Notes: generated from the sequence alone by a model not told the origin. A DNA stretch of 64,000 nt from Victivallales bacterium (GCA_965228125.1 OZ245791.1:257596-321595), one strand, 5' to 3'; numbered from the stretch's first letter, positions 29,278 to 54,951 are shown. Numbers and translations: made by a program.

Positions 29278-29331
29278 AAATATATTCCTAAAGTTTTTGT
29301 CATAATCATTTTCGGAAATCCTTACCCTCCA

Positions 29332-31482: not shown

Positions 31483-31488
31483 AAAATA

Positions 31489-32637: not shown

Positions 32638-32670
32638 AGCATCTCCTTTGCATCTAATTTTAAAAAAACA

Positions 32671-33711
32671 TTACTTCTTCGGTAAAAACCAGAACATTGC
32701 CTTTTCAGGGCATTCTTTAATACATGTCCCGCAGGCGCTACATTTTTCATAAGAAAAAACTATCTCTTTAGGGTTACACGGTACTTCCATTGATAGGCAA
32801 TATTTTAAGCACTTGGCACAAGATAAGTTAAGTGAAAGACTTATAGCATTACTAGGGCAAAGCTTAATACACTTTCTGCACCTGTTACATATGTCAAAAT
32901 CTATGGCAGGTAGCTTAATCTGGTTGTCAAGATAATCCGAAATCAACGAAAAGGCTTCCTTGCTTGCAACTGTTTTAGACATCGAAGCATGTATTATTCC
33001 AAGATATTTCTTGCTCTTAATATGTCTGAACGACATCGAGAAATTTACATCAAATATCCAGGCAAGCTGCAAAAGTTTGAAATCATTTAAACTTCTAACA
33101 TCATCAAAGTTTACACTTTTTTTATTTAATACCGATCTATGGACGTTTTCTGAAATATCCGGCGTGTCCGGAAGATTGAGTTCTATGGCGTTGCTCTGTC
33201 TGCCGCCATTTTTTCTATCTGTATAATACTCTGTAACGACTCTGTATATGTCTAGTTTGTCCGCATCGCGAAGGAGTTTAGAAAAGAAAAGGCACTCTTG
33301 AGTTTCGTCACCAGGAAGCAGCGCGCGGTTATGGTATTTGAGCGCCTTTAATATCAGCTCTTGTTTCTCTTTGCTCAGATTGTCGAGAACTTTGTTTTTG
33401 AGAAGTATTTCAATCCCAAGTTCGGCATGATTGACAGACTTGCCGTCCATAAAAGTGCCATAGGTTTTATACTGTTCAAAGCGGCCGACATCATGAAAAA
33501 GAGCAATAATTTCCGCCAATTGCAACTCTTCTTCATTTAATCCGAGAGATTTGCCTATCTCTATAATCGCTTCGCAAACCTTCTGAGTATGCAATTCCTT
33601 AAGGTTGACATTCTCCAAAAGATCAGTTCCGCTGCCTTTGAACGAGAGAACGTAATCGGAAAACCAATTCCTAATGTTCTTCAATTCGATTTTGTTTATT
33701 CCCGTATGCAT
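32671..33711 (-). CDS. HD-domain phosphohydrolase fused to C-terminal 4Fe-4S ferredoxin-type motifs
   Basis: 346 aa. HD motif LFHDVGRFEQ. C-terminal CNRCRKCIKLCP and CSACGTCIKECP. Confidence 0.7.
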   Translation of the reverse strand: MHTGINKIELKNIRNWFSDYVLSFKGSGTDLLENVNLKELHTQKVCEAIIEIGKSLGLNEEELQLAEIIALFHDVGRFEQYKTYGTFMDGKSVNHAELGIEILLKNKVLDNLSKEKQELILKALKYHNRALLPGDETQECLFFSKLLRDADKLDIYRVVTEYYTDRKNGGRQSNAIELNLPDTPDISENVHRSVLNKKSVNFDDVRSLNDFKLLQLAWIFDVNFSMSFRHIKSKKYLGIIHASMSKTVASKEAFSLISDYLDNQIKLPAIDFDICNRCRKCIKLCPSNAISLSLNLSCAKCLKYCLSMEVPCNPKEIVFSYEKCSACGTCIKECPEKAMFWFLPKK

Positions 33712-34193
33712 TTAAAAACTTTACCCTGCTTAGAAAAATATTCGATTATATCACCCGGGACTATTTTTCCAGAAGTAATCACTCTGCAAAATAATCCTTC
33801 ATGGAGCATGACAGATTTGCCTATTATGCGGAAAATACCATTTCCATTTTCTTTATAAACTTCAGGTTTCCCTATTTGGGTTACTTCAAGCTCCACATTG
33901 CCGATTTTGAAACGGTCTAAGAGTTTTACCCCTGACAGATCCAAACCGACTGTGGTAATATTTTCAGCAAACTCTCCAGACAGAATTGCAGTTCCGACTT
34001 CTCTTGAAAACTCATCAATTCTTTCCTTGTTAATAAGGCTTACATGTCTTTCTGAGTCGGCATAGTGAGCGTCTCCTATAATTCCTTTTTCACCCACAAT
34101 TATTTCTGGAACGGGCTTTTTTATCGTCCCTTTTTGCTCTGAGATATTAACCGAAAATATCTTGCCCAAACATTTGTTTGTAATTTTAATCAT
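33696..34193 (-). CDS. MOSC domain protein
   Basis: 165 aa. The pattern GIIGDAHY...RHVSLI fits MOSC. Confidence 0.7.
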   Translation of the reverse strand: MIKITNKCLGKIFSVNISEQKGTIKKPVPEIIVGEKGIIGDAHYADSERHVSLINKERIDEFSREVGTAILSGEFAENITTVGLDLSGVKLLDRFKIGNVELEVTQIGKPEVYKENGNGIFRIIGKSVMLHEGLFCRVITSGKIVPGDIIEYFSKQGKVFKCIRE

Positions 34194-34729
34194 TAATATT
34201 CCATTCCCAGTCTAGCTTCAATTCCTTTGTCATAAGGATGTTTTATATTCTTCATTTCCGTAACAAGATCAGCTCTGTCTATGAGCGCTTCTGAGGCATA
34301 CCTCCCTGTTAAAATAAGGTCTGTACCATCAGGTTTAATATCAATAAAATCTATGACTTCCTTTTCTTTTATCAATCCAAACCATACAGCAACGATTATC
34401 TCATCCAATATGACCAGATTATATTTGGATGTCAGCATTTTTTCTCTGCATGTCAATAGCCCTTTTTCGATAGTTTGCCTGTGGGTTTCATTGACTTCAT
34501 TTTTTCGAATGCATTTCTCCCAGCCGAACTGTTCTATTTCGATGTTCTTATCATCTTTTAGATAAATGTCTTCGCCGTAAGGCCTCCCCTTCATAAATTG
34601 GGCCAGATATACTTTTCTTCCATAGGCCGCACTTCTTATTGTCATTCCGAAAGCGGACATGGTTTTGCCTTTCCCATCTCCTGTGTAGATATGAACTAAA
34701 CCTTTCATCCTAAACCTACTTATATACAA
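34193..34729 (-). CDS. cobO: Cob(I)yrinic acid a,c-diamide adenosyltransferase (CobO/BtuR family)
   Basis: 178 aa. P-loop YTGDGKGKTMSAFG typical of CobA/CobO/BtuR. Confidence 0.8.
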   Translation of the reverse strand: MYISRFRMKGLVHIYTGDGKGKTMSAFGMTIRSAAYGRKVYLAQFMKGRPYGEDIYLKDDKNIEIEQFGWEKCIRKNEVNETHRQTIEKGLLTCREKMLTSKYNLVILDEIIVAVWFGLIKEKEVIDFIDIKPDGTDLILTGRYASEALIDRADLVTEMKNIKHPYDKGIEARLGMEY

Positions 34730-34755
34730 AATTTAACTTCTTAAGCCCACCGCTC

Positions 34756-35355
34756 TTATGAAAATAGTTTAACTGCTAGTTCGGCGACCCTTCTGCCTGT
34801 ATTTTTAGCTGTTTCCATGCCAAATGTGTCGGTATTAATACCTCCCTGTTTTGCGTCATTGAAAAGAGTAGCCCCGAAATGAGCCGTAGGTTTTCCGTCG
34901 CAAACACAGACCATATCCTGACAGAACAGCGCGGATTGAACACATTGAATAGTGAGTTCCTGTCCTCCGTTTCGCACTCCGCCCACTGCTATTGCAGCGC
35001 CGACTTTCCCTTTGAATTTCCAGTTGTTTCTGCGAAACATTACGCATCTTTCAAGAAAAGCCTTGCAATGGGCAGCCATTGACCCGAAATAGACAGGCGT
35101 AGCAACGATTATGCCAGCTACCTCAGGATCGTCCAACAAAGGTATTATGCCGTTAAAATCATCATTAATGCTGCACTTTAGTTCTTTAGTACAAGCTCCG
35201 CAGGCTTTGCATGGCATAATAGTTTTTTCAGCCAGATCAACTATTTCAGTCTTTATCTTCTGTGAATATTCAGCGCAGGCATCAAGAGATGCTTTCAACG
35301 CGGTGTAAGTGCTTTGGTGTTTTCTCGGACTGCAGCAAATCCCCAGTACTTTCAT
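34756..35355 (-). CDS. Iron-sulfur flavoprotein / NADPH-dependent FMN reductase family
   Basis: 199 aa. CSPRK flavodoxin-like start and a compact Cys cluster, CKACGACTKELKC. Confidence 0.7.
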   Translation of the reverse strand: MKVLGICCSPRKHQSTYTALKASLDACAEYSQKIKTEIVDLAEKTIMPCKACGACTKELKCSINDDFNGIIPLLDDPEVAGIIVATPVYFGSMAAHCKAFLERCVMFRRNNWKFKGKVGAAIAVGGVRNGGQELTIQCVQSALFCQDMVCVCDGKPTAHFGATLFNDAKQGGINTDTFGMETAKNTGRRVAELAVKLFS

Positions 35356-35383
35356 TTTTTGACTCCTTAAATTAGTTTTGTAG

Positions 35384-35803
35384 TTATTTGGTTCGCATAA
35401 ATTTTGCGTTTGATTCTACCATCAGTTCATCATTACAAAAAATCTCAGCTTTCATATAAAAAAGATTTCTCTTGCTTGATACCAACTCACCGTACAAATC
35501 AAGTATCAGGTTGATTGGAATGGGTTTATGAAACCTCACGTTCATATCAGCAGTAACGGCTTTAACTTTCTGGTAAAAAAGGCAATGAACCATCGCTGCA
35601 TCGAGCAGCGCGCACATGACTCCGCCATGGATAATCCCGTTATACCCCTGAAGTATCCTTAATCCTCTTAAAGTAGTATGCACTCTTCCATCGCTTAGAC
35701 AGACAAATTTCAGACCTAAGCCAATAGGATTGCTGTCTCCGCATAAAAGACAGTTGCAATGCCCAAACTTCTTGCTTATCTCATTGTCTTCAGAGGCCGA
35801 CAT
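35384..35803 (-). CDS. PaaI-family hotdog thioesterase
   Basis: 139 aa. CLLCGDSNPIGLGLKF ... HGGVMCALLD is the family pattern. Confidence 0.65.
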   Translation of the reverse strand: MSASEDNEISKKFGHCNCLLCGDSNPIGLGLKFVCLSDGRVHTTLRGLRILQGYNGIIHGGVMCALLDAAMVHCLFYQKVKAVTADMNVRFHKPIPINLILDLYGELVSSKRNLFYMKAEIFCNDELMVESNAKFMRTK

Positions 35804-35844
35804 GATTCACTAACTCCTTTATTCACATAAACAGGCAAATACAA

Positions 35845-36693
35845 TCAGTTAATACTATTTTTTTTAACCAGAAAACTATTCAGTTTGCAGCCAATATCCC
35901 TTGCTATTACAGGGCATTTGACTTTGAGTAGGAAATAAATATTTTTATCTGTTCCGCTTAAGGTTTCATAATTTCCCTGCCCTTTGGAAATAATTAAATC
36001 TGACTTATCAAACATATCCCTGAATTCAGCAGAGCATTGATTCAAGACCGTCCCGGGAAGCCCCGAGCCGTTGCTTATGACAGGAACCATATCTGAGAGC
36101 CCGACCATTAGCGCGTCTTCCATCAACACGTCATTTAAAATAGCTTTCCCGCGAACAGCAAAAGTGATTTTATTCTTTGGCAATTGCTCTATAAAGAGTT
36201 TATCAAACACGATTTCCCCCGCGTTATCTCCAATATAAAGAATCTTTTCAGCTTTACCGATTTCACTTTTTAAAAACTCTGGACAGATCTCTTTTGAAGA
36301 GAGAATTTTTTTTATGTCTTCATGGATTGTTTCGTTCGTAAATTTATGGCTTGCTCCAAAATCTATCACATTTCCTGCTATCGAAAGCCGCATGGCGGCA
36401 TCAAAAGGATCAGAAGACTCAGAAACCATTCGGGAAAGCTCATCATACATTCCCATTATATACAAATTGGACTCTTTCTTTGTTTCTGCATATGAATCAA
36501 ATTCTCCATAATATTTCTCAAATATATCAAGAACACTCTTAGATATTTTCGGTGGAGAATCAGCAAAATCGGTATCTCCAAGAAGATGCAGCACTTCTTT
36601 CAATATCTTTTCATAATGGGCTGAATCCGTGCCTTTCAAAAATCTTAATGTTTGATTTACGAAACACGGAATACATTCATAATAAGTTTTCAT
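35845..36693 (-). CDS. DUF89 (ARMT1-like damage-control phosphatase) family protein
   Basis: 282 aa. The N-terminus YECIPCFVNQTLR is typical of bacterial/archaeal DUF89. Confidence 0.7.
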   Translation of the reverse strand: MKTYYECIPCFVNQTLRFLKGTDSAHYEKILKEVLHLLGDTDFADSPPKISKSVLDIFEKYYGEFDSYAETKKESNLYIMGMYDELSRMVSESSDPFDAAMRLSIAGNVIDFGASHKFTNETIHEDIKKILSSKEICPEFLKSEIGKAEKILYIGDNAGEIVFDKLFIEQLPKNKITFAVRGKAILNDVLMEDALMVGLSDMVPVISNGSGLPGTVLNQCSAEFRDMFDKSDLIISKGQGNYETLSGTDKNIYFLLKVKCPVIARDIGCKLNSFLVKKNSIN

Positions 36694-36745
36694 TCTATCT
36701 CAGCTCTATTGATAATCATTTGTTTCATCTGTCCAATGTAACCAA

Positions 36746-37483
36746 TTATACAAAACATATCCGTTTAAGCCCTGCTAGCGCAGCAGCGCCGGCAATGGTA
36801 ACGCCATAAAATATCACTTTATTTTTATTTCCGGCGTAAGAGATTATTTCATCTATGGTTCCATTAACTAAAGTTGAACCAGTGGCAAGAACTAGGTCTG
36901 CCCATGCTAGGGCAGATTCTTTATTTTTTTCGCCGTCTTCAATTTTGACGCCGAGTTTTTCCTTGCCAATGTTATCGATATCTAAATCCAAAACTCTCAC
37001 ATTGTACTTTTTTGATAACGCGTCTATGATTGCCGGCTGATATCCGACAATGGTTATTTTTTCTGTCCCGGGATACTCCTGCTGAATAAAATCATTTATT
37101 TTTGAGGCGCATATTCCGGGCATTTCATCTTTGCAGTGTTCTGTATTGTTCACTAGTTTCCAGTACCGAGCAAGAGCATTTATCGTTGAAACTTGCAGAG
37201 CTCTTCTATAATTATTGCAGGATTTCAGATTAAATACGCCTTCTAGAGACCCTTTATATCCGCCATGCATATCAGTAAAAGCCTGTCCCTTGAAACCCAT
37301 AAAATCGGCTTCCATTATTTTTTCTTTTCCTTTAAGGATTGGAAAATCGTAATTTTCAGGATTCCCTATGGCTTCTTCTGCCGAGAGCACTCTGGCTTTT
37401 ATTGTTATGTCAGCGCCGATAAGATTCTCTTCTTTAAGGCGATTGGTTACAGACTCTATTACGGTATCAAGAATATTTTTCAT
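36746..37483 (-). CDS. DUF4213/DUF364 Rossmann-like protein (putative metal chelation family)
   Basis: 245 aa. The C-terminal pattern IVGYQP...LDL...ADLVLATGSTLVNGT matches DUF364. Confidence 0.65.
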   Translation of the reverse strand: MKNILDTVIESVTNRLKEENLIGADITIKARVLSAEEAIGNPENYDFPILKGKEKIMEADFMGFKGQAFTDMHGGYKGSLEGVFNLKSCNNYRRALQVSTINALARYWKLVNNTEHCKDEMPGICASKINDFIQQEYPGTEKITIVGYQPAIIDALSKKYNVRVLDLDIDNIGKEKLGVKIEDGEKNKESALAWADLVLATGSTLVNGTIDEIISYAGNKNKVIFYGVTIAGAAALAGLKRICFV

Positions 37484-37501
37484 ACTATTTAGCGACGAAT
37501 A

Positions 37502-37840
37502 TCAATGATCGCAGACATTTGCTCCTGTTACAAGGTTCCCTGCAAGGTAAGATTTTACAACAGCCTCAGGCTCTTCGGATGGAGCGCCAACAACGACTTT
37601 TACATTATTCCCTGTAAAAAGCTGTTGGGCTCTCATTCCCATTCCACCTGCTATAATCACATTGACTCCAAGATCACCAAGCCACTTAGGTAAAACTCCC
37701 GGCTCATGAGGCGGAGGTGTTTGCACTGTTTTACTTTTAACTGCCTTAGTTTTTTCATCCGTTTCAAAAATTGTGAATACTTCACAATGGCCAAAATGCA
37801 TACAAAGTTTTCCGTCGGTTGTTGGGATTGCAATTTTCAT
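37502..37840 (-). CDS. NifB/NifX-family cofactor-binding-fold protein
   Basis: 112 aa. MKIAIPT...HFGHCEVFTIFE is the family start. Confidence 0.8.
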   Translation of the reverse strand: MKIAIPTTDGKLCMHFGHCEVFTIFETDEKTKAVKSKTVQTPPPHEPGVLPKWLGDLGVNVIIAGGMGMRAQQLFTGNNVKVVVGAPSEEPEAVVKSYLAGNLVTGANVCDH

Positions 37841-37870
37841 TTCTTATTTTCTCCTTTATTTCAGCGTTTT

Positions 37871-39127
37871 TTAGTTTGTGTTAGCTATTATTTTTTTTAC
37901 TATTTCTCTGAAGGATTCAGCAGTATCAGGAGTGACCAAATCCATAAATGATTTTCCTGAATCGCCTGAAACTACAATTTTAGATTCGATAGGAATGCGG
38001 CCAAGATATGGCGTGCTGAGTTCCTGAGCCATCCTTTCTGCTCCGCCGTGGCTAAATATATTGGAAACTTCTCCGCATTTAGGACACTTAAATCCGCTCA
38101 TATTCTCGATTACCCCCAATACGGGAAGATTAAGCTGGTCGCAGAAGGTAATTGATTTCCTTACATCGTTAACTGCTACTTCTTGAGGCGTGCTGACTAT
38201 TACGGCTCCGGCTGGATTCTTAATAAGCTGGCAGACACTGAGCGGCTCATCACCCGTCCCAGGAGGGCAGTCTATGATTAGATAATCAAGATCCCCCCAT
38301 CTTACATCCTGCAGGAATTGTTTTATCATATTCATTTTCATCGGGCCTCTCCATATAACAGGGGCGTTTTTATCCCTTAGAAGAAACCCTATCGACATTA
38401 CTTTTATTTCACCGGCCTTAACTGGCATTATATCTTCGCCTTCTCCATGAAGTGGTGAGTCTGATACGCCAAACATCATAGGAATGCTCGGACCGTGTAT
38501 ATCGACATCAAGTATGCCGACTTTTTTCCCCATTGCCGATAAAGTGGTGGCGATATTTGCCGCTACAGTGCTTTTGCCGACTCCGCCTTTGCCTGAAAGA
38601 ACAATTATTTTATTTCTTATTCTTCCTAATCTTTCATCCAGCGCCATTTTTTCATCTTTTTCAAGAAATCCAGTTTCGGATTTTCTTAGTTCGCATTCTT
38701 CTTTATCACACTTCTGGCAATCACTGTCAGGACTGTCACAAACAGCGGTTTTTTTATTGCTCTCTATGTAGTTGCGAACAGCGGCTTTCAGTGTATTAAT
38801 AGAAAGCAAAGCGCAATGTTTTGATTCGTCAGGGATATTTCCAGCAATGCAAAGAATATCCTGCTGGTCAAGCTTATCTATTGTTTCAATAGTTGCCCCT
38901 TCACCAATCAGCGCTCCTATGCTGCCGCACTTAATGGAATGAGCACATCCGTCTGTCGTGTAAGATGCGGCGCAAACTTTTCCGTCCTCGATAAACACCC
39001 AGAACTCCATTGTGTCGCCACACGGGCCTGTAATTCTCGCATTTCCGTTAGCCCCTCTCAAAGGGCCAAAGTTAATTGGCAGTTTTCTGCTGTTTGACAT
39101 TAAAATTTCTTCCATAAGTTTTCCCAT
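37871..39127 (-). CDS. NifU/IscU-like scaffold domain fused to Mrp/NBP35 P-loop ATPase
   Basis: N-domain GPCGDTMEFWV...DGCAHSIKCGS. ATPase domain VLSGKGGVGKST and CPKCG. The likely true start is ATG 39100, which overlaps the upstream stop by 1 nt (TAATG coupling). Confidence 0.85.
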   Translation of the reverse strand: MGKLMEEILMSNSRKLPINFGPLRGANGNARITGPCGDTMEFWVFIEDGKVCAASYTTDGCAHSIKCGSIGALIGEGATIETIDKLDQQDILCIAGNIPDESKHCALLSINTLKAAVRNYIESNKKTAVCDSPDSDCQKCDKEECELRKSETGFLEKDEKMALDERLGRIRNKIIVLSGKGGVGKSTVAANIATTLSAMGKKVGILDVDIHGPSIPMMFGVSDSPLHGEGEDIMPVKAGEIKVMSIGFLLRDKNAPVIWRGPMKMNMIKQFLQDVRWGDLDYLIIDCPPGTGDEPLSVCQLIKNPAGAVIVSTPQEVAVNDVRKSITFCDQLNLPVLGVIENMSGFKCPKCGEVSNIFSHGGAERMAQELSTPYLGRIPIESKIVVSGDSGKSFMDLVTPDTAESFREIVKKIIANTN

Positions 39128-39969
39128 ATATTTGTTATTTCACTTACTGCTTTTCCTTTGCCCCATTCTATGACGCTCTGCCCTGCAATTTGGGCTTGCG
39201 TAACTTCGTTATCATACGAAATACGCCCAAGCACAGTCGCTCCTACTTTCATTGAGTCGCGTTCAATAACCTCGGACATTTCGGAGTTTATGTCAAATTT
39301 ATTCACGCAGACATATAGTGGGATTTTGAAATGAGACGCTAGTTCAGCCACTCTTTTTAGATCGTGCTGCCCCGATAAAGTAGGCTCGGTTATTGCTACA
39401 ACTGCATCAGCTCCAGTGATAGACGCAATAACCGGACAGCCAATACCTGGTGGGCCGTCAATCAGGAGCATATCGGCTTTAGTTCTTCCTGATATTTTTT
39501 TTGCTTCTGTTCGCACGACACTGACAAGTTTTCCTGAATTTTCAGCCGCTATGCCAAGTTTTGCATGAACCATCTGCCCAAACCGCGTATCTGAAACATA
39601 CCACTCTCCGCAAAGCCTCTCCTTAAGCTCAATAGCATTGAAGCGGCAAAAATCATGGCACACTCCACATCCTTCACAGCTTATCGAATCAATGACATAT
39701 GAGCCATCCTTGTTTTTTTTCACAGCGTCAAAACGGCAGATTCTTTTGCATTCGCCGCATTTCAGGCAAGCATCGTTTTTAATGACTGCTTCATATCCAC
39801 TATAAAACTTATTCTTTTGTCGGATATTCGGAGATAAAATCAAATGCAAATCTGCAGCATCGACGTCACAATCTGCTAGAACAGCATTTTTGGCAAGGGA
39901 TGCAAATGCGGCTGTAATGCTTGTTTTGCCGGTTCCTCCTTTGCCGCTGATAATAACAATTTCTTTCAT
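39100..39969 (-). CDS. MinD/ParA-family P-loop ATPase with inserted 2x[4Fe-4S] ferredoxin domain (COG1149-type), copy 2
   Basis: SGKGGTGKTS plus CLKCGECKRIC and CEGCGVCHDFC. Confidence 0.85.
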   Translation of the reverse strand: MKEIVIISGKGGTGKTSITAAFASLAKNAVLADCDVDAADLHLILSPNIRQKNKFYSGYEAVIKNDACLKCGECKRICRFDAVKKNKDGSYVIDSISCEGCGVCHDFCRFNAIELKERLCGEWYVSDTRFGQMVHAKLGIAAENSGKLVSVVRTEAKKISGRTKADMLLIDGPPGIGCPVIASITGADAVVAITEPTLSGQHDLKRVAELASHFKIPLYVCVNKFDINSEMSEVIERDSMKVGATVLGRISYDNEVTQAQIAGQSVIEWGKGKAVSEITNIWENLWKKF

Positions 39970-40916
39970 TTATCGTTCCCTTTATTTATCTTATAGAAGT
40001 TTTTACCGCCAATTTGCTCTTGGGTTAAAGTCTTTTCAGCACAGAGGTGTTCAAGTAATTTAAGAATCTCGTTATAATTTACTGACATGGTATCGGAAAT
40101 TTCTTTGCTCGTACACGGCCGCCTCATCAAAAGGCTAATAAGAGCCTCCTTGTCCACAGCAAACATCTTATCCTCCTTACCTTCTTTAAAATCAGCAATA
40201 GCCTCAACTTTTCCAGGAAAACATCTGCATAGTTTTTCCAGCTCATTCTTGGAAAGGCCTGCCGCATACTTTTCACATGGCGGTCGGGCAATCGTATTGA
40301 GTTGAGTTTTTTCAGGGTTAAGCCGTTTGACTATACTCGCCAGTTCTTTAATATGTTTTTCTTCAGATGACGGACCTTTTAATAAGAAGACTTCCAGCCA
40401 GGTTTCCCCTTTAAATTCTTCAATAAATGATTTGATGCCGGATACTATTAGTTCAAATGATAATTCTTTGCAGGGACGGTTAATGTATTGAAATATTTCT
40501 TCGTTCCCCGCGTCAAGAGAAGGTATGACAACATCGGCCTTCATAAGCGCTCTGCTTACTTCAGATTTCCATAACAGTGAGCTGTTTGTTAGTACAGCAA
40601 CAGGTTTGTCTGTAAGTTTCTTAAGGGCTTCAATTATTTCCCCAACTCGAGAGTGCAAGGTGGGTTCTCCCGAACCTGAAATAGTAATATAATCAATTCT
40701 TATTTTTTCTTTCAGTTTATATTCAATGTCTGCCAATATTTCATTAAGAGGGAAATACTCTTTTATCTCAATGGTTTTATTTGTCGTATGTCCAAGCTGA
40801 CAATAGATGCAGTCAAAAGAACATGTTTTGTAAGGGACAAGGTCTATACCCAAAGAATACCCGAGGCGACGTGACGGCACAGGACCAAAAACATGTTTTA
40901 ATTTATGGCTTTTCAT
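39966..40916 (-). CDS. Radical SAM protein (COG0731-like) with C-terminal wHTH-like tail
   Basis: FGPVPSRRLGYSLGIDL...CSFDCIYC. No SPASM-type C-terminal Cys clusters. 4-nt overlaps with both neighbours. Confidence 0.85.
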   Translation of the reverse strand: MKSHKLKHVFGPVPSRRLGYSLGIDLVPYKTCSFDCIYCQLGHTTNKTIEIKEYFPLNEILADIEYKLKEKIRIDYITISGSGEPTLHSRVGEIIEALKKLTDKPVAVLTNSSLLWKSEVSRALMKADVVIPSLDAGNEEIFQYINRPCKELSFELIVSGIKSFIEEFKGETWLEVFLLKGPSSEEKHIKELASIVKRLNPEKTQLNTIARPPCEKYAAGLSKNELEKLCRCFPGKVEAIADFKEGKEDKMFAVDKEALISLLMRRPCTSKEISDTMSVNYNEILKLLEHLCAEKTLTQEQIGGKNFYKINKGNDK

Positions 40917-41779
40917 TGTGCGCCTCTATTTGATTTTACTTCCGCGGCAATATGATTAAGCAACTCCATCAATTTTCCCTGGATAATAGGCATTGCATCT
41001 ATGATAGTTTTTCCCTTTGAATAAGCTTCAGCCACGCTTCTTGAATCTGGAATCCTCAACAAAAGGGGAATGGATTCATTTGCGCAGTAATCATCCACTC
41101 TTCCGTCTCCTGAATCTGAACGGTTTAGAATAACGCCGAAAGGAATTTTCAATCCTCTGACAGTCTCAACGGCAAGTTTCAAGTCGTTAAGCCCGAATGG
41201 CGTAGGTTCTGTCACAAGCAATACAAAATCTGCGTCTTTTACGGCGCATATCATCGGACACGATGTTCCAGGCGGACAGTCAATAATCGTGATGAAATCA
41301 CAAGAAACATGCTCTTTAACTGCTCTTATGACAGGCGGCGACATTGCACGCCCTACGTCAAGCCTGCCCTGGAAAAATTGTATATTGCCGCAGACAGCTT
41401 CTTCCACAACTCCGACTGGAACTTTCTTTTCCGCAATGGCGCCGCTCTTACAGACCCTCACACACCCTCCGCAACTATGGCAGAGTTCAGGGAAAATCAT
41501 CGGCCCTGACGGTAGATTAATAATAGCATTGAAGCGGCATATCTTTGAACACTTTCCGCACAATATACACTTGTCCTTTTTAAAATAAGGAATTTGTACG
41601 GTTACATTCTGGCTTCTAATATCTTTTAAATCTAGAAATATGTGACAGTTAGGCTCTTCTACATCGCAATCAAGAAGACAAATTTCTTCAGAAGAAACAG
41701 CAGCAAGCGAGACTGAAATTGTCGTTTTCCCTGTCCCGCCTTTACCTGAAGCTACTGCAATTGTTATAGGCTTTCTCAT
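40913..41779 (-). CDS. MinD/ParA-family P-loop ATPase with inserted 2x[4Fe-4S] ferredoxin domain (COG1149-type), copy 1
   Basis: SGKGGTGKTT plus CILCGKCSKIC and CHSCGGCVRVC. Confidence 0.85.
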   Translation of the reverse strand: MRKPITIAVASGKGGTGKTTISVSLAAVSSEEICLLDCDVEEPNCHIFLDLKDIRSQNVTVQIPYFKKDKCILCGKCSKICRFNAIINLPSGPMIFPELCHSCGGCVRVCKSGAIAEKKVPVGVVEEAVCGNIQFFQGRLDVGRAMSPPVIRAVKEHVSCDFITIIDCPPGTSCPMICAVKDADFVLLVTEPTPFGLNDLKLAVETVRGLKIPFGVILNRSDSGDGRVDDYCANESIPLLLRIPDSRSVAEAYSKGKTIIDAMPIIQGKLMELLNHIAAEVKSNRGAQ

Positions 41780-41782
41780 TAC

Positions 41783-42145
41783 TTACATCCAGTGCCCTTC
41801 TACGTCAGCGCCTTCTGCAATCTTTAATCTTCCACTGATCAATTCATCAACGGCTTCTTTTACTGTTCCTGTTTCCTTAAGATATAATTTTACTTTTGAA
41901 CCGCTTAAAACCCGATAGGCTTTCGGCCCGCAGTGTCCTGTGATTATACAGTCTGCTCCTGAGTTCAAAACGTTTTGTGCCGTCTGGATACCGGCTCCTT
42001 GCGCAGCATTCAGATTTTGGATGTTATCCATTGTAGAAAAAGTATTTGCAACGCTATCATAAACAATAAAATACCTTGCACGGCCAAATCTGGGATCTAT
42101 TTGTGAATCCATACTGCTGTCTTGAGCAGAAATTGCTATTTTCAT
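41783..42145 (-). CDS. NifB/NifX-family cofactor-binding-fold protein
   Basis: 120 aa. MKIAISAQD...RFGRARYFIVYD. Confidence 0.8.
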   Translation of the reverse strand: MKIAISAQDSSMDSQIDPRFGRARYFIVYDSVANTFSTMDNIQNLNAAQGAGIQTAQNVLNSGADCIITGHCGPKAYRVLSGSKVKLYLKETGTVKEAVDELISGRLKIAEGADVEGHWM

Positions 42146-42459
42146 GATTTTCCTCCATCCATGTTTAGTGTATCGAGTCTACTTTTTATATTATCAATTT
42201 CAACTTGTAGATGTTTAAGCTCTACTTCCAAGAATTGTTTTTCGTTAACATTAGATTCAGCTCTTAAAACTGGAGCATTATAGGCAAGATATCTGTTCCT
42301 GTAACCTTTCCCTCGGCCTAAGCCTCTGCCCGAGTAGCACCTTCCGCATCCTCTCCTAGGATACGGGGCGACATTGATATTTTCACTTGCGCAATAACCG
42401 AATCCTCCGCCTGTCATTGGCCCTTCTCCCAATGGTCCTTTCCCATCTCTTCCTGGCAT
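42142..42459 (-). CDS. DUF5320 family protein
   Basis: 105 aa. N-terminus MPGRDGKGPLGEGPMTGGGFGYC and a C-terminal coiled coil, as in DUF5320. 4-nt overlap with the NifX-like gene. Confidence 0.75.
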   Translation of the reverse strand: MPGRDGKGPLGEGPMTGGGFGYCASENINVAPYPRRGCGRCYSGRGLGRGKGYRNRYLAYNAPVLRAESNVNEKQFLEVELKHLQVEIDNIKSRLDTLNMDGGKS

Positions 42460-42477
42460 AATTATTCTCCTAAGCTG

Positions 42478-42696
42478 TTATTTTCTTGTCATTTTATTAT
42501 TACATTTAGGACATAGTTTGTGTGCACATGGTTCAGATTCAATATAAATCATTTCATAACCACATGAAGGACATATACAATTCTGGTGTGATCCTTCAGT
42601 AAAAGGACCCCCCATTTTTGCTCTGTTTCCTTTTTTTATATTGACTTTACCAACTGGTCCTATACTCATAGATCCAATTCTGTTTTTCCCTGGCAT
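42478..42696 (-). CDS. Small MPGK-start Zn-ribbon protein
   Basis: 72 aa. MPGKNRIG... then NCICPSCGYEMIYIESEPCAHKLCPKCNNKMTR. Confidence 0.55.
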   Translation of the reverse strand: MPGKNRIGSMSIGPVGKVNIKKGNRAKMGGPFTEGSHQNCICPSCGYEMIYIESEPCAHKLCPKCNNKMTRK

Positions 42697-42715
42697 AATT
42701 TCACCTCCAGTTTTT

Positions 42716-42913
42716 TTATTCTCTTACCATTTTTGTTCCACATTCAGGGCACACTCTGACGCTACAGGGTTGTCCTGCTATATGGGGAACTTTATGATTG
42801 CATTTTGGACAGACACAATTTCCGCCCGGCCCGGCAGCTAACGGGCCTCTCATTCTGCCTCCTCCTCTGATAGAGTCATTGCCCAACGGCCCTGTTCCAT
42901 TTCTTCCCGGCAT
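42716..42913 (-). CDS. Small MPGR-start Zn-ribbon protein
   Basis: 65 aa. MPGRNGTGPLG... then NCVCPKCNHKVPHIAGQPCSVRVCPECGTKMVR. Confidence 0.6.
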   Translation of the reverse strand: MPGRNGTGPLGNDSIRGGGRMRGPLAAGPGGNCVCPKCNHKVPHIAGQPCSVRVCPECGTKMVRE

Positions 42914-42930
42914 ACTTTTACCTCATATTT

Positions 42931-43422
42931 TTAGATTTTACTTTCTCCTTGACCTCTTCTGCATCGGCCAGGATTGTATGTAAACTCCTGTCGTGATTGA
43001 ACTTTGCTAATAGAATCATCATTCCCGCATTCCGGGCATTTTTGAATACTGTTTGCATTCATTTCCCATTTGTGTCCGCACTTAGAACATTCATGCATTT
43101 CAAACATCAGTTTTTCAGGCTGACCATTGATACAAATAGCCTTCCCATGCAGCAGGGCATCAGCTATTTTTTTGTGAGCTGAATTAATTATATTCCCAAA
43201 CGTCTGTCGTGAAATTTTCATTTTTATCGCGGCATCAGCCTGATAAAGCAAATCAAAATCTGCCAGTCTGAGCGCTTCGAATTCATCTGGAGTCAGGACG
43301 ACTTCTTCTAGTTCACACAATGGAATCCCTCTTGGCTTAAAGTATTTGACTTTTGCCTCTGTAGATATTCTGCGGCATCTGAATGGTCTTCCAGCCATAT
43401 TCTGACTTCCTATTTTATTCAT
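42931..43422 (-). CDS. DUF134 (UPF0251) putative DNA-binding regulator with C-terminal Zn ribbon
   Basis: MAGRPFRCRRI...KYFKPRGIP...LTPDEFEALRLAD is the DUF134 signature. The likely true start is ATG 43398. C-terminal CSKCGHKW...CPECGN. Confidence 0.8.
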   Translation of the reverse strand: MNKIGSQNMAGRPFRCRRISTEAKVKYFKPRGIPLCELEEVVLTPDEFEALRLADFDLLYQADAAIKMKISRQTFGNIINSAHKKIADALLHGKAICINGQPEKLMFEMHECSKCGHKWEMNANSIQKCPECGNDDSISKVQSRQEFTYNPGRCRRGQGESKI

Positions 43423-43459
43423 TTGATTTAAAATTAAACTATCAAAGCTATATTAGTTA

Positions 43460-43473
43460 TTAGCATATGCTAA
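43460..43473. promoter_or_regulatory. Perfect 14-bp palindrome TTAGCATATGCTAA in the divergent DUF134 / C_GCAxxG_C_C promoter region
   Basis: Read directly, 41 nt upstream of 43514 and 38-62 nt upstream of the DUF134 start. Its core AGCATATGCT is also at 26043..26052. Confidence 0.5.
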
Positions 43474-43513
43474 CAAAATACAAAATAGATTTTCTAAAAA
43501 AAGGTTAAAATAA

Positions 43514-43978
43514 ATGGATAAACTTCTAAAGGCAGAAAGTTATTTTCTTCAAGGTTATGCCTGTTCTCAGTCAGTTCTCATGGCATTTGCCGAAGAAACT
43601 GGCATCGACATCGAAACAGCTAAAAAGATATCATCAACATTCGGCGGAGGCATGGGAAGACTCAGAAAAACCTGCGGGGCTCTCACAGGCGCTTTCATGG
43701 TTATCGGGTTGAAATACGGGAATAGCAAACCTGATGATATGAAAACAAAGCTTGCCTCTTACGATATGGTCAGGGATTTAGCTAAAAGATTTACGGAAAA
43801 ACACGGTACAATCGAATGCGATAAATTACTACAGAAATATACAAATAAGGCCACTGTAGAAGTAAGAGCGCACCACCATGTAATATGTAAAAATATCGTT
43901 AATGATGCTGTTAGTGTTCTTATTGATATTCTTAATGAGAAAGACTCTAATATACAAAAAGAGAAGTTTAACAGTTAA
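43514..43978 (+). CDS. C_GCAxxG_C_C family protein (paralogue 2)
   Basis: 154 aa. GYACSQSV...KTCGALTGAFM. By eye, roughly 60 percent identical in protein to 25523..25966. Confidence 0.85.
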   Translation: MDKLLKAESYFLQGYACSQSVLMAFAEETGIDIETAKKISSTFGGGMGRLRKTCGALTGAFMVIGLKYGNSKPDDMKTKLASYDMVRDLAKRFTEKHGTIECDKLLQKYTNKATVEVRAHHHVICKNIVNDAVSVLIDILNEKDSNIQKEKFNS

Positions 43979-44007: not shown

Positions 44008-45585
44008 TTATAATGATATCTTAGCTATCATACCCTTACAGTGCTTTACCACACACTCGAAGTCGGCTAATTTGCGAAGATCGAAATATTTGTACTCTCC
44101 GGTTTCCTTTTTCTGATAGGTTACATTCCCCCTATTCTGAGAAAAACCATAGGATTGCTTCTGGAAAACCTCAGATTTACCAAGATCGGATTCCGCAAGT
44201 TTAGCAGCCCGTTCATCTGCCTGCCGAAAATAGATTTTATTACAAAGGTTAAGAAGCAATGTTTCCGTCTTATAAACATCAAGCTTATTAAGAAAACTGG
44301 TTGTACTTTGAGTGCTGAAAACAACAGTTGAATACGTGCTTCTTATCTTATCTACAACAGTCGAATCGTCCATGCCTTCGGCGCTTGTAACTACAGCCTG
44401 GGCCTCATCAGCAAAGAATACCAGGAGATTTTTGTTTTCTTTTTCTTCAATTGATAAGTCTTCCCGCAATTGTGCATGATAGTAAAAAAGAAGTTTCATA
44501 AAGGTATTGATATAATTCCTTTGGGAATAGACATTTGATACAGCAATACAGACAATCTTCCCACTATCAATATCCTCAAAATTGAAAGTGCTATTCTCTG
44601 AACAGAAAACTTCCACTACTTCGTCATCCGTATATGGAGATAAGTAGTTGTTGATAGTTGAAACAACTCCCTGAAACTGCTGAGGCGCCTTTCTTGATTG
44701 TTCAAGAAAATCTTCGACAAAGTATTTAACTGTTTCATCTTCATACAATTGTTTCGGCAATGATTCAAAGAGTTTATTAATACCTTTTTCTGATAGGATG
44801 TCTTTTACAGCTTTCAGGGTAACTTGGCGGTTATTTCGTTCAAACAAATATATCTTGTCTAATAATTCCATAGCATATTTGATGGCAATAGTGGCCTGAT
44901 GCTTAAAGAAGTTTTCAGTACTTCCCATACCTTTTGCCTGTCCCATGGATGAAGCTACATTTACTATCAGCTGAGCGTAAGTATGCCATGGCATTTTCCT
45001 GTAAGAAAGCAGATTAAATTTATGTCTGATATTTTGACCTGTCTTAAGAGTTATGATTTTATCATCCATGTTAAATTCAGGCACTATTTTTTCTATATCC
45101 CGATAACATGAACCTTTGGCATCAACAATAAGACCTCCCCAGTCAGGAACATGTTTAAACAACTGCCTGTAGATTGTCTGGATAGCTCCGGAAGTTTTTC
45201 CGCTTCCAGTTTCACCTGTAATAAGCCAACCTCTGCAGAATTCTCTCAAGTCCCATTTGAGACTTGAGAGATTTAAAACTGTTTTGCCTTTATCAAAACT
45301 GATAGTCTTACTTTTCCTTAGATGATAAACCAACGGCACTCCGATAGTAGGTATGACAATCATTACAGCAATATTATCGTGAAAAGATGCATAAAGCATG
45401 TAGGAAGCAATTATCAGACCTATACATGGCAGCCAATATTTTATCAATCTTAAGGGTTGTTCTGTAATTGATTCTATGTTTCTGATAGCCAAAACAGACA
45501 GTCCGAACATCAACAGAGGCAGGCATTTTTCAGGATAATTTCTGGCAAATGCGAAAACATTTTCGACTGTGCTAGAAATATCCAT
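44008..45585 (-). CDS. Type IV coupling protein (VirD4/TraG/TraD-like ATPase)
   Basis: 525 aa. N-terminal TM helices, Walker A ITGETGSGKTS, Walker B-like LLVFFADEAQ. Last gene of the T4SS operon. Confidence 0.7.
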   Translation of the reverse strand: MDISSTVENVFAFARNYPEKCLPLLMFGLSVLAIRNIESITEQPLRLIKYWLPCIGLIIASYMLYASFHDNIAVMIVIPTIGVPLVYHLRKSKTISFDKGKTVLNLSSLKWDLREFCRGWLITGETGSGKTSGAIQTIYRQLFKHVPDWGGLIVDAKGSCYRDIEKIVPEFNMDDKIITLKTGQNIRHKFNLLSYRKMPWHTYAQLIVNVASSMGQAKGMGSTENFFKHQATIAIKYAMELLDKIYLFERNNRQVTLKAVKDILSEKGINKLFESLPKQLYEDETVKYFVEDFLEQSRKAPQQFQGVVSTINNYLSPYTDDEVVEVFCSENSTFNFEDIDSGKIVCIAVSNVYSQRNYINTFMKLLFYYHAQLREDLSIEEKENKNLLVFFADEAQAVVTSAEGMDDSTVVDKIRSTYSTVVFSTQSTTSFLNKLDVYKTETLLLNLCNKIYFRQADERAAKLAESDLGKSEVFQKQSYGFSQNRGNVTYQKKETGEYKYFDLRKLADFECVVKHCKGMIAKISL

Positions 45586-45589
45586 TTGT

Positions 45590-46237
45590 TTAAGCCTTTA
45601 CGTCTGAGATTGGAGATGTTTTATCAACTGTATTTTCCTGAGGCTTTGTCTCAATGAGTTTTTTCAACTCATTTGTAGTTTCGGATTGCTTTTTAATTTT
45701 CTCATTCAGTTCATTCTGATTTTTAATCATGGCTTCGTTCTGTTTTATAAGAGAATCCATTTTTTGTGCTGATTGATTTATGTCCTGAGCTCCTTTATTA
45801 ATCATCTCAGCATATTTTTGATTATTCTGAGCTACTGCATCCCTATAATCCATGATCCTTTTTTCCATTTCAGCATATAAGGGCTTAACCTCAGAAGTGT
45901 TGGTTAATTCCGGTTCAATAAGCGTAGAACCATCTGATAGCTTTATTGGCGGATTTGGACGCCTATTCCAAGTAGATGAATTAGCAACTCTGTACAGCTC
46001 ACTCTTTTCATACATGATGTCGCTGTTATTTGGATCAATGTATCTGCCAACAGTATATACTTCGACATTTTCTGGATTCCTGACATCATTCATTCTTATT
46101 TCAGGCACATTTGTTCCAGCTACATAAACAGGTGTCATAACCTGTGTTTGAGGTTCAACTTTCGGCGTACTGCTGCAAGCGCTTAACATTAAAAAAGCTA
46201 TTCCGTAAACTATGTTTATTACTATCATTTTCTTCAT
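45590..46237 (-). CDS. Lipoprotein with C-terminal coiled coil (T4SS-associated)
   Basis: Lipobox FLMLSAC. 215 aa. It sits where virB11 would be in a canonical VirB operon. Confidence 0.5.
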   Translation of the reverse strand: MKKMIVINIVYGIAFLMLSACSSTPKVEPQTQVMTPVYVAGTNVPEIRMNDVRNPENVEVYTVGRYIDPNNSDIMYEKSELYRVANSSTWNRRPNPPIKLSDGSTLIEPELTNTSEVKPLYAEMEKRIMDYRDAVAQNNQKYAEMINKGAQDINQSAQKMDSLIKQNEAMIKNQNELNEKIKKQSETTNELKKLIETKPQENTVDKTSPISDVKA

Positions 46238-46251
46238 TTCTTATTCCTTCG

Positions 46252-47544
46252 TTATTGTAATCCTGGGTAATTTTTTAATAACATTTCTTTTTTCTGTTCC
46301 AGTTCATTGGCTTTTGGATAGATATCCTCCTGGGATGTAAATGCTTTTTCATCACTTTTTTCATTGTTATTAGTCAGATCGACACGAGAACCAGCTATTG
46401 ACGCTTTTCTCATATCGATAGTCTGTTCTACATAAAGATAAAAAGTTGATCCGGCAGGACATCTGACAAAAAAGCCATCCTTCATGATATGACTTAACAT
46501 TATATCGGCATAAAGATCAGCAGATTGCTCAAGACCTTTACCTAATGAATCAGCCCATGTACCTCCTGATTCAATCATTGCTGCTCCTCCGGACATTCCC
46601 ACAATATTATTTTTGTACATACCCTGCCCCATGCCTGCAAGCATTTTTAATGCTATGGCTTTAAGTTCGGCAAGACTTCTGTTATCGATTGTATATCCTT
46701 TGATCCCAGCACTTCCGTCTGTAATAGACCATTTTTTACCTTCTGATCCTGCAATCCTGCCATCTTCAAGAGCAATCCCTTTTACTTTTAATTCAAGCCC
46801 ATTATCTGTGCCATCAGACCTCCACACAAGAATCCATGAAGTACTTGTTGCGATATGATCTCTGATTGGCGTTGAACGTGCAGTCCCATGGACTTCAGTC
46901 CCGGAAGGGATTATAAGTTTCCCTTCGTTATACACATCTTCTGTTACAAGTCCTATTATTGGAGTTTCAGTATTAGCTGAATCAATAGTATTGATAAGTT
47001 CACAAGGAATCAGTCTTCCATAAGGAGCAAATTCTCTCATAGGTGAGCTATTATCTTGTGACTTTGCAGTGTATAGATCAAGAGGAGTAATACTAAGAGC
47101 TCTGCTGTTACTATGGATATTATTAACAGAATCCTTGTTTTGTTGCTTTGTTTCTGCTGCTTCAAAGGTTTTAACATTAGGAACAGCCCTCTTTTCTGGG
47201 ATACTTGTATCAGATTCAGAATCATTCCTAACTATAACATTTGTGGTTTCTCTCCCTGGAATAAATTTCCCCGGATTAAGATTTACTGAACCTTCAGATT
47301 CCTGAATAGTATAATTGCCGCCTTTTGGCATTTCTGCAGAAAGCAGGCTTCTTAAAAATGGAGATATAACCATAATGAACAAAAGAACAATAAAAAGCAT
47401 GACAAACTTTCCTATAGGCGTCTTTATAAAATTGATAATACTTCGTGCGTCTTTCATAAATGGAATGCTCATTTGATTAAATGACTTTATGTATAAGTCT
47501 GTAAAAATAATTGTGTTCTTCCTGATGTAGAGACTGTTTATCAA
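46252..47544 (-). CDS. VirB10/TrbI-like protein
   Basis: One N-terminal TM helix and a C-terminal domain pattern (RLIPCELINTIDS...IIGLVTEDVYNEGKLIIPSGTEVHG) resembling TrbI/VirB10. The likely true start is ATG 47472, 5 nt after the upstream stop. Confidence 0.6.
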   Translation of the reverse strand: MINSLYIRKNTIIFTDLYIKSFNQMSIPFMKDARSIINFIKTPIGKFVMLFIVLLFIMVISPFLRSLLSAEMPKGGNYTIQESEGSVNLNPGKFIPGRETTNVIVRNDSESDTSIPEKRAVPNVKTFEAAETKQQNKDSVNNIHSNSRALSITPLDLYTAKSQDNSSPMREFAPYGRLIPCELINTIDSANTETPIIGLVTEDVYNEGKLIIPSGTEVHGTARSTPIRDHIATSTSWILVWRSDGTDNGLELKVKGIALEDGRIAGSEGKKWSITDGSAGIKGYTIDNRSLAELKAIALKMLAGMGQGMYKNNIVGMSGGAAMIESGGTWADSLGKGLEQSADLYADIMLSHIMKDGFFVRCPAGSTFYLYVEQTIDMRKASIAGSRVDLTNNNEKSDEKAFTSQEDIYPKANELEQKKEMLLKNYPGLQ

Positions 47545-48223: not shown

Positions 48224-48237
48224 ATGTAATTTCCTTT

Positions 48238-49969: not shown

Positions 49970-49974
49970 TATTT

Positions 49975-54949: not shown

Positions 54950-54951
54950 AA

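Follow-up and report, generated by a model that had tools for sequence, protein, structure and literature searches.

What kind of system is encoded by ten densely packed genes, all on the minus strand, that occupy positions 37502-43422 of a 64,000-nucleotide stretch from a Victivallales bacterium (GCA_965228125.1 OZ245791.1:257596-321595; this whole stretch is hereafter called the window)? In order of transcription, they encode a DUF134 protein, two small cysteine-ribbon proteins (sp1 and sp2), a DUF5320 protein, a NifX-like protein (NifX1), a MinD-ferredoxin ATPase (MinD-Fd1), a radical SAM enzyme, a second ATPase of the same type (MinD-Fd2), a fusion of NifU_N with Mrp (NifU_N-Mrp), and a second NifX-like protein (NifX2). 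An initial annotation had treated this set as a module of unknown kind. We scanned the window's proteins with Pfam and NCBIfam models and found all ten open reading frames (ORFs) where that annotation had placed them, with each family backed by these models wherever one exists. The module is not nameless, however. Judged from their sequences, the ten genes form an extended variant of a cluster known from Desulfovibrio (DVU2103-2109), that of the orange protein (ORP). The ORP complex has reportedly been known since 2011, and its core is familiar; the extended form with a radical SAM enzyme is a variant of that core. We draw this kinship because the MrpORP model NF041136 extends over two adjacent genes of the run, because NifX1 matches an orange protein of known structure, and because the two ATPases carry motifs like those of Orp3 and Orp4. 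As the best explanation of the whole, to which we give a probability of roughly 0.6, we propose an extended ORP-type operon whose products would use ATP to assemble or traffic an anionic metal-sulfide cluster.

Kinship with the orange protein cluster

NifX1 (41783-42145), which consists of a single Nitro_FeMo-Co domain (PF02579, 71.6 bits), is a homolog of the orange protein, Orp8. Its best match in the PDB is 2WFB, the orange protein of D. gigas, with residues 2-113 aligned to residues 6-118 at an E value of 4.7e-19. At the other end of the run, residues 168-417 of NifU_N-Mrp (37871-39127) match positions 2-252 of NF041136 (iron-sulfur cluster carrier protein MrpORP) with 374.6 bits, and the adjacent NifX2 gene (37502-37840), which also encodes a Nitro_FeMo-Co domain, covers positions 265-365 with 135.6 bits. 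With the model split over two genes, each part lies below the 450-bit cutoff, and their simple sum is 510. NifX2 further contains CMHFGHCE, TPPPHEPGVLP, and a terminal CDH, which are the published motifs of the Di-Nase domain (PMC6345978). What had been annotated as merely another NifX-like protein is, by this score and these motifs, the detached Di-Nase domain of MrpORP, and the two genes together are predicted to be a split MrpORP (Orp9).

The ATPases MinD-Fd1 (40913-41779; a CbiA domain and two Fer4 domains) and MinD-Fd2 (39100-39969; likewise with two Fer4 domains, by Pfam and motifs) each have the deviant Walker A sequence KGGTGKT and two CX2CX2CX3C motifs, which in MinD-Fd1 read CILCGKCSKIC and CHSCGGCVRVC. 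They are 30% identical and 48% similar to each other, the published mutual similarity of Orp3 and Orp4 being 41%, and we regard them as the putative counterparts of that pair. The C-terminus of MinD-Fd2, ...ITNIWENLWKKF (...NIWENLWKKF), looks amphipathic. Such a tail could also speak for a different role, in which the MinD-like ATPases would act as positioning factors in cell division or septum placement and their clusters would be structural or regulatory only. Such a role was the first to be proposed for the complex in Desulfovibrio; D. vulgaris orpR mutants have abnormal morphology, MrpORP is polar, and Orp3 and Orp4 have MinD-like amphipathic tails (PMC6345978, PMC8359166). Against it, the fusions of scaffold and carrier indicate cluster supply, and the neighboring genes are those of metals and cofactors (a CDF-NifX transporter, HydG, MOSC, DUF364, DUF89, Fur, NicO, and Feo), not those of division. 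We therefore consider a positioning role quite improbable.

The first of these fusions is NifU_N-Mrp itself. Its IscU-type NifU_N domain (PF01592, 53 bits against a cutoff of 22) keeps all three of the cysteines that serve as cluster ligands in IscU/NifU_N, in GPCGD (C36), DGCAHS (C61), and KHCAL (C105) when numbered from the ATG at 39127, and its Mrp/NBP35 part (NUBPL ParA) contains CPKC as its CXXC motif. Between the two domains, a linker (38725-38772; residues 120-135 from the ATG at 39100) carries a CX6CX2CX4C motif, CDSPDSDCQKCDKEEC, which is reminiscent of the additional cluster motif at the N-terminus of Nbp35 and of the non-canonical Cys motifs in MrpORP. Among the related loci that we retrieved (see below; denoted by L numbers), this fusion with a separate Di-Nase gene recurs in L002, L008, L013, and L047. 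The canonical Mrp-DiNase (MrpORP) fusion is found in L024, L033, L036, L037, and L051, usually with a NifU_N gene nearby or adjacent, and NifU_N, Mrp, and Di-Nase are three separate genes in, for example, L052. That loci of one kind contain all three forms of Mrp connects MrpORP with an IscU-type scaffold. The study that described MrpORP left the source of its cluster open, and Lentisphaerae already appear in its supplement for fusions of the MrpORP type (PMC6345978).

In Desulfovibrio, Orp3, Orp4, Orp5, Orp8, and Orp9 form a complex, and MrpORP passes [4Fe-4S] clusters to Orp3 and Orp4 in vitro (PMC6345978). Among homologs of the ORP system, both the orange protein and the Di-Nase domain bind clusters, and expression occurs only at low redox potential (PMC6345978, PMC8359166). 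The multiprotein metallocluster machine that the initial annotation envisaged is in line with this published biochemistry (PMC6345978).

Set beside the ORP systems of D. vulgaris Hildenborough and D. alaskensis G20 (Orp3, Orp4, Orp5, Orp7, Orp8, and Orp9, the last being MrpORP, with the regulator OrpR), the window has in common a homolog of the orange protein, a pair of paralogous MinD-type ATPases that each carry two ferredoxin [4Fe-4S] motifs, an Mrp/NBP35 carrier with CXXC, the Di-Nase motifs (CxHFGHCE, TPPPHxPG, and CDH; encoded in the window by the adjacent gene), a small protein with Cys whose gene precedes those of the ATPases, and a strict-anaerobe lineage. The DUF5320 protein (42142-42459; PF17253, 84.8 bits) occupies the position of Orp5, ahead of the ORP homolog and the ATPases, and is like it in position alone; Orp5/Dde_3197, its would-be counterpart, has reportedly been characterized and binds [2Fe-2S]. 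In other respects the two systems differ. Desulfovibrio has two divergent operons, whereas the window has one co-directional operon; in place of the sigma54 activator OrpR, the window has a DUF134 helix-turn-helix and ribbon protein with a palindrome; and MrpORP is fused in Desulfovibrio but split in the window, with its Mrp part joined to the IscU-type NifU_N. The window also has a radical SAM gene between its ATPase genes, two extra six-Cys ribbon mini-proteins, and an operon that runs on into DUF364, DUF89, and further cofactor-type genes.

The junctions between these genes are tight, if not quite as tight as initially annotated. The 4-nt ATGA overlaps at 42142/42145, 40913/40916, and 39966/39969 are present, but overlaps at four consecutive junctions are not, since NifX1 and MinD-Fd1 are separated by a 3-nt gap. 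The 1-nt TAATG overlap at 39100 holds only if NifU_N-Mrp begins at its third in-frame ATG (MSNSRK...), while the longest ORF, from 39127, gives an overlap of 28 nt. A better Shine-Dalgarno-like sequence (GGAAGAA) precedes 39100, and the protein may start there instead of at 39127. Joint transcription of the genes is a prediction; no RNA-seq run was found to contain the sequence. Short gene overlaps are commonplace in operons; the non-trivial point is that the window's gene order recurs in unrelated metagenomic loci.

The radical SAM enzyme and its neighbors

We retrieved relatives of the radical SAM enzyme by searching genome contigs with the single protein, which gave 2 loci, and metagenomes with an alignment of the family, which gave 80 loci, and the ORFs of the fetched loci were then searched with the window's proteins. 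Twenty-five loci were well flanked, with at least 4 kb on either side of the radical SAM gene. In 19 of these, a MinD-Fd, NifX, or Mrp gene lay within 6 kb on the same strand, and in 13 both MinD-Fd and NifX were near. A MinD-Fd gene directly adjoins the radical SAM gene in 18 distinct loci, and seven (L008, L013, L018, L044, L047, L052, and L077) have the radical SAM gene between two MinD-Fd genes, as in the window. L008 and L013 repeat the window's order of DUF134, small proteins, ORP homolog, ATPase, radical SAM, ATPase, and Mrp, to which L008 adds DUF5320 and a downstream Di-Nase gene. The closest locus, L002 (a Lentisphaerae bacterium, 72% identity), is syntenic with the window from the radical SAM gene down to a methyltransferase, and L092, fetched via DUF134, contains DUF134, DUF5320, NifX, a fused MinD-Fd pair, Mrp, NifX, DUF89, and the radical SAM gene. 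ORP genes also stand beside the radical SAM gene in three distant, Pfam-annotated contexts (L003, Syntrophus gentianae; L004, a Spirochaetales metagenome-assembled genome [MAG]; and L006, a MAG).

Further families travel with this core. DUF5320 adjoins the ORP homolog and ATPases in L008, L033, L044, L047, L077, L086, and L092, and DUF89 adjoins the radical SAM or ORP genes in L002, L006, L016, L020, L036, L051, L078, and L092. The window's own DUF364 and DUF89 (ARMT1-like) genes, which Pfam places directly downstream of NifX2 (35845-37483, minus strand), are probably an extension of the module. Other neighbors of well-flanked radical SAM genes, either housekeeping or metal-linked, include DUF6125, TrmO_N, and Fur with DUF362. 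The co-conservation in other genomes on which the annotated module depended is thus borne out by the 19 of 25 loci and by the repeated orders of L008, L013, and L092. We conclude that the link between the radical SAM enzyme and the ORP genes is strong but not obligatory, and that, by comparative genomics, this enzyme family is part of the ORP module in many anaerobes.

TrmO_N proteins were also seen beside radical SAM genes or DUF134-NifX pairs at L003 7433-7984, L042 1348-1830, and L090 8053-8544. Directly downstream of the radical SAM gene, three unrelated loci have a CDF transporter fused to a NifX fold (L003 8999-10264, L009 6287-7549, and L046 10984-12246), and a fusion of the same type lies within the window's larger cluster, at 26967-28244. 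An MBL-fold (Lactamase_B) gene without an NCBIfam name is present in the window (26149-26943) and in 19 of 85 related loci, which makes it one of the commonest companions of the radical SAM and ORP genes; it often adjoins Mrp or MinD-Fd.

The enzyme itself (39966-40916) has its cluster motif CX3CX2C at C32, C36, and C39, within CSFDCIYC (PF04055, 63.6 bits against a cutoff of 29.5). Its family is very large and uncharacterized: of 8000 candidates scored, only one fell short of significance, and the top 120 each had 333 bits or more. In the family alignment, GPVPSRRLGxSLGxD..P.K.C...C.YCQLG, PSLDA, WLE, QLNT..RP, and RRPC are invariant blocks. An AlphaFold2 (AF2) model with a pLDDT of 88 contains a partial TIM-barrel core, and both this model and a profile search indicate that the last ~60 residues, three helices and a hairpin, form a winged helix like those of ArsR/MarR/AspA domains. 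A PDB sequence search with the protein gave no match, and profile and Foldseek searches found generic cores only (15-19% identity, TM about 0.5). The best of these was the PFL-activating enzyme (PFL-AE), the others being viperin, TYW1, NifB, and RlmN; the Foldseek probability was 1.0 for PFL-AE, viperin, TYW1, and NifB.

An NCBIfam scan assigned the enzyme to no curated family at that family's cutoff, and several specific identities could be rejected. It is neither of the MoaA type (TIGR02668, 45 bits against 325) nor a tungsten-cofactor maturase (TIGR04317, 42 bits against 380), and model scores and motifs rule out viperin. NifB is rejected by the lack of a NifB model among 20 NCBIfam hits, by the presence of only one invariant Cys beyond CX3CX2C, and by a C-terminus that is a winged helix and not NifX. 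Nor is the C-terminal domain a RiPP recognition element, as its three helices precede the hairpin where that element has a strand-first order.

The initial annotation had also raised the prospect that the enzyme might be a known tRNA-modification enzyme unrelated to its neighbors. In that vein, it could be a housekeeping RNA-modification protein (COG0731) present in the operon by chance. Many homologs bear the JGI label 'wyosine synthetase', some lie among housekeeping genes, and the winged-helix tail could bind nucleic acid. That label, however, is merely the name of COG0731, and the window's enzyme resembles TYW1/COG0731 in its radical SAM core fold and in the label that automated annotation gave to many of its family. 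It scores 35.4 bits with the TYW1 (4-demethylwyosine synthase) model TIGR03972, far below the cutoff of 317.95, lacks the second cluster motif, and has the winged-helix tail; bacteria with this enzyme are not expected to make wyosine. Chance adjacency is also hard to reconcile with ORP genes within 6 kb in 19 of 25 loci, with MinD-Fd genes on both flanks in seven, and with 4-nt overlaps between the radical SAM gene and both ATPase genes. Disfavored on this evidence, this explanation is barely credible.

Small basic proteins, DUF134, and a candidate operator

Two genes, neither of which has a family hit in Pfam or NCBIfam, encode small proteins with a common design. The sp1 protein (42716-42913) starts with MPGRNGTGP and continues through a Gly/Arg-rich linker into a six-Cys ribbon (CxCPxC...PC....CPxC), and sp2 (42478-42696) is, by alignment, a diverged paralog with the same ribbon. 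Together with a third copy (28293-28499) and the DUF5320 protein, which starts with MPGRDGKGP and has a cationic Gly/Arg/aromatic middle part with three Cys and a coiled-coil tail, they form one set. Its start is a near-invariant MPRGDGTGP across the family, from which the window's versions have diverged, and after the Gly/Arg-rich stretch its members continue as a coiled coil (DUF5320), continue as a six-Cys ribbon (CxCPxC...PH..G.PC....CPxCG), or end. Among 1.84 billion cluster representatives, a profile of the ribbon class had 2281 matches at E<=1e-3, of which 618 reached E<=1e-10; longer members are fusions whose partner is Nitro_FeMo-Co, DUF134, or an FeS domain combined with a DUF5320 N-terminus. 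One further protein, P0121 (1430 aa), combines PDZ domains with three Nitro_FeMo-Co domains and five six-Cys ribbon modules. On these comparisons, the ribbon mini-proteins are a widespread family without a name that belongs to the ORP module in many anaerobes.

The DUF5320 and sp proteins are basic and Gly-rich (isoelectric points [pI] of 9.3-9.9), and residues 1-62 of DUF5320 alone have a pI of 9.9, with 16 Gly and 10 Arg+Lys. IssA of Pyrococcus furiosus binds anionic thioferrate by a cationic Gly/Arg/aromatic tail attached to its NifX-fold domain, and it can restore the [4Fe-4S] cluster of ferredoxin (PMC5524996). ORP binds its Mo-Cu-S cluster non-covalently (PMC6345978), and NifB-co has been described as likely anionic (PMC5524996). 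More generally, the Mo-Cu-S cluster and NifB-co share both properties, being anionic and non-covalently held. From such clusters and the cationic small proteins, we infer that the cargo of the system is an anionic metal-sulfide species.

The same likeness could mean something simpler, namely iron-sulfur storage or buffering of the IssA type, in which the NifX-fold and cationic small proteins would store thioferrate-like polymers, NifU_N-Mrp and the ATPases would load or mobilize them, and no special cofactor would be involved. The thioferrate-binding cationic tail of IssA (PMC5524996), the Gly/Arg-rich composition and high pI of the window's proteins, the existence of NifX-ribbon fusions, and the Fur, Feo, and DtxR genes near related loci all fit such storage, and the combination of a NifX fold with a cationic Gly/Arg/aromatic-rich sequence, which IssA holds in one protein and the window on separate proteins, is fused in some relatives. 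Yet NifX1 is nearest the orange protein, not IssA; the cationic proteins go beyond charged tails, each having an invariant Cys ribbon or a coiled coil; and a conserved radical SAM enzyme and two ferredoxin-ATPases, which form no part of the IssA system, would go unexplained. We judge storage of this kind unlikely.

A second alternative makes the small proteins the substrate. The radical SAM enzyme would modify DUF5320, sp1, and sp2, with the N-terminal MPRGDGTGP nonapeptide as a tag, to yield a metal-binding cofactor borne on a protein or peptide. A locus has up to three such proteins, with a near-invariant start and differing tails; the best core fold match of the enzyme, PFL-AE, acts on a protein loop; and a winged-helix domain containing an invariant RRPC is added to the enzyme's core. 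On the other hand, it has no SPASM or twitch auxiliary cluster, its C-terminal elements are ordered as in ArsR/MarR winged helices and not as in a RiPP recognition element, and the small proteins show the conservation of folded proteins and occur in fusions with NifX or DUF134 domains. Many radical SAM loci also have no detectable small proteins, the MPxxDGTGP motif occurring in 17 of 85 (18 of 86 sequences scanned when the window is counted). Modification of the small proteins is therefore unlikely, and the trafficking or assembly of a metal-sulfide cluster remains our preferred explanation.

The operon is headed by DUF134 (UPF0251; 42931-43422), a helix-turn-helix protein (PF02001, 80.9 bits against a cutoff of 27; 3810 homologs) whose C-terminal CxxC...CPxC ribbon is kept in L008, L013, and L069. 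PF27353 (named MJ0401), which is precomputed on most DUF134 homologs and gave no match to the window's DUF134 in the Pfam scan, is probably this C-terminal ribbon. DUF134 and a C_GCAxxG_C_C gene are divergent, an arrangement also seen in L088, and the promoter region that separates them contains a palindrome, TTAGCATATGCTAA (43460-43473), that we regard as a candidate DUF134 operator. A generic scan for sigma70 promoters and terminators was uninformative (60 sites against 55 expected). The core of the palindrome, ATTRGCATATGCYAAT, is found 10-65 nt upstream of DUF134 in L013, L069, L088, L089, L090, L091, and L092, and with the window included at least eight loci, from several phyla, have the palindrome at the DUF134 promoter. 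Those of L013 and L069 were found in loci fetched by the radical SAM enzyme, and L008 has a near match. The exact 10-mer occurs twice in 902 kb of fetched loci, each time 19-30 nt before a DUF134 start, where about 0.9 occurrences would be expected anywhere.

Five of these DUF134 homologs (L088-L092), from different lineages, were chosen by DUF134 similarity alone, and all five have ATT[AG]GCATATGC[CT]AAT at 10-65 nt before the DUF134 gene; in L089, L090, and L091 it immediately follows a -10-like box. Four of the five have a NifX-like gene after DUF134, once with DUF5320 in between. Further palindromes precede a DUF5320-headed ORP operon (L069:952) and a DUF89-radical SAM pair (L078), and operator-like sites in the GC-rich L047, L010, and L069:9488 have no confident gene assignment. 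No Sigma54_activat gene of the OrpR type lies in or beside the window's operon, and OrpR is confined to Deltaproteobacteria (PMC8359166). In L006, an OrpR-type PAS/sigma54 activator (11120-12227) ends a locus of ORP, radical SAM, MBL, and HydG-like genes, so OrpR-type and radical SAM-containing forms can coexist. Control by DUF134, as initially proposed, is thus backed by its promoters: DUF134 is probably the transcription regulator of the operon, and the comparative evidence supports, though it does not prove, that it autoregulates and controls the ORP genes in place of OrpR.

The wider array, a proposed mechanism, and its meaning

The ten genes are the upstream part of about 25 co-directional genes (window 25523-43978). 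Beyond those already named, this array encodes a DUF364 and a DUF89 protein, a 4HBT thioesterase, a flavoprotein of the FMN reductase type, CobO-like, MOSC, and HD-Fer4 proteins, a DegT aminotransferase, a methyltransferase, HydG, a PS-decarboxylase-like protein, the third ribbon mini-protein, the CDF-NifX transporter, and the MBL-fold protein, with C_GCAxxG_C_C genes at both ends. AGCATATGCT has a second exact copy at 26043-26052, separated by 77 nt from the C_GCAxxG_C_C gene that it precedes at the far end of the array. Many of the array's genes are found together again in L002, and some of them in L004, L006, and L092. The HydG-like gene (29332-30738; TIGR03955, 493 bits against a cutoff of 312) has no HydE or HydF companion among the scanned genes of the cluster, and a similar gene is also near the ORP and radical SAM genes of L006. 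Outside the window, two proteins, P0004 (71% identical to the radical SAM enzyme) and P0272 (84% identical to DUF134), are second-copy candidates, being listed on a contig as long (3,081,560 bp) as that of the window's own proteins, and the genome probably contains a second, diverged copy of the cluster. The array is bracketed by ArdC-like and AbiEi/AbiEii genes on one side and a TrwB-type coupling protein on the other (22063-24822; 44008-57165), and no tRNA genes were found in the 64-kb window; the array may be cargo of an integrative conjugative element.

As for how the extended ORP-type operon would work, we envisage that NifU_N-Mrp builds [4Fe-4S] clusters and passes them to both ATPases, as MrpORP does to Orp3 and Orp4 in vitro. 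By analogy with NifH-type proteins, the ATPase pair would then use ATP to drive low-potential electron transfer or cluster insertion, and its likely recipient would be the radical SAM enzyme, whose gene lies between those of the pair. The NifX-fold proteins and cationic small proteins would hold a non-covalent, anionic metal-sulfide, such as the Mo-Cu-S cluster of ORP, NifB-co, or IssA thioferrate, and the radical SAM enzyme would carry out an undefined radical step on this cargo or on a carrier protein. DUF134 would bind ATTRGCATATGCYAAT, which overlaps its own promoter, and so control the operon.

A general parallel is the nitrogenase set of NifB, NifH, NifU, and NifX-NafY, which likewise combines a radical SAM enzyme (NifB being one fold match of the window's core), a SIMIBI-class iron-sulfur ATPase, an IscU-type scaffold, and NifX-fold carriers to which anionic clusters bind non-covalently. 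Unlike nitrogenase assembly, however, the window's set comes without nitrogenase or NifEN, its ATPases are of the MinD-ferredoxin type and not NifH, and its radical SAM enzyme has no NifX fusion, no extra cluster ligands, and no match to a NifB model.

Several points weigh against the mechanism we favor. About a quarter of the well-flanked radical SAM homologs stand apart from ORP genes, with housekeeping neighbors that include CYTH, YegS-like kinase, and KdsA-like genes. Outside CX3CX2C, the family has only one invariant Cys, so the enzyme is without the auxiliary clusters expected of NifB-like, cluster-fusing enzymes. The link from DUF5320 to Orp5/Dde_3197 comes from gene position, not from aligned sequence, and ATP-coupled electron delivery by MinD-ferredoxin ATPases is argued by analogy. 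A literature search returned no experiment on any ORP cluster with a radical SAM gene, and the function of the ORP complex itself was still termed unclear in 2021 (PMC8359166).

In the searchable literature, we found no account of a radical SAM-containing, DUF134-headed, IscU-fused ORP form, although the original description of ORP synteny might mention a radical SAM neighbor, and none of the ribbon family or of the DUF134 site. Full-text searches, some pairing orange protein with radical SAM and others on DUF134, DUF5320, or the COG numbers, gave nothing relevant. The Desulfovibrio model is without the radical SAM enzyme, the IscU fusion, and DUF134, and the variant described here is widespread, in Lentisphaerota, Spirochaetota, Planctomycetota, Syntrophia-type bacteria, and other anaerobes. 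It brings into the system a catalytic enzyme whose substrate can be sought among a few co-encoded proteins, and its domain fusions order the players, with scaffold, carrier, and Di-Nase joined in turn and ribbon proteins joined to NifX and to DUF134. For the uncharacterized DUF134/UPF0251 family, ATTRGCATATGCYAAT is a sharply defined candidate operator that can be used for regulon mapping in the genomes of anaerobes.

A bolder and more tentative version of our reading may also be considered. The extended ORP cluster could be an assembly line, widespread in anaerobes and independent of nitrogenase, that makes a complex anionic metal-sulfide cofactor. IscU-Mrp would feed ATPases that power the radical SAM enzyme on a cluster held by NifX, with the MPRGDGTGP/Cys-ribbon proteins as adaptors and DUF134 as a metallo- or redox-sensing repressor acting through ATTRGCATATGCYAAT. 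If true, it would provide the first defined roles for the ORP complex and for DUF134. Assembly or transport of a special metal-sulfur cluster by this system, if it occurs, would bear on how the many iron-sulfur and heterometal enzymes of strict anaerobes mature.

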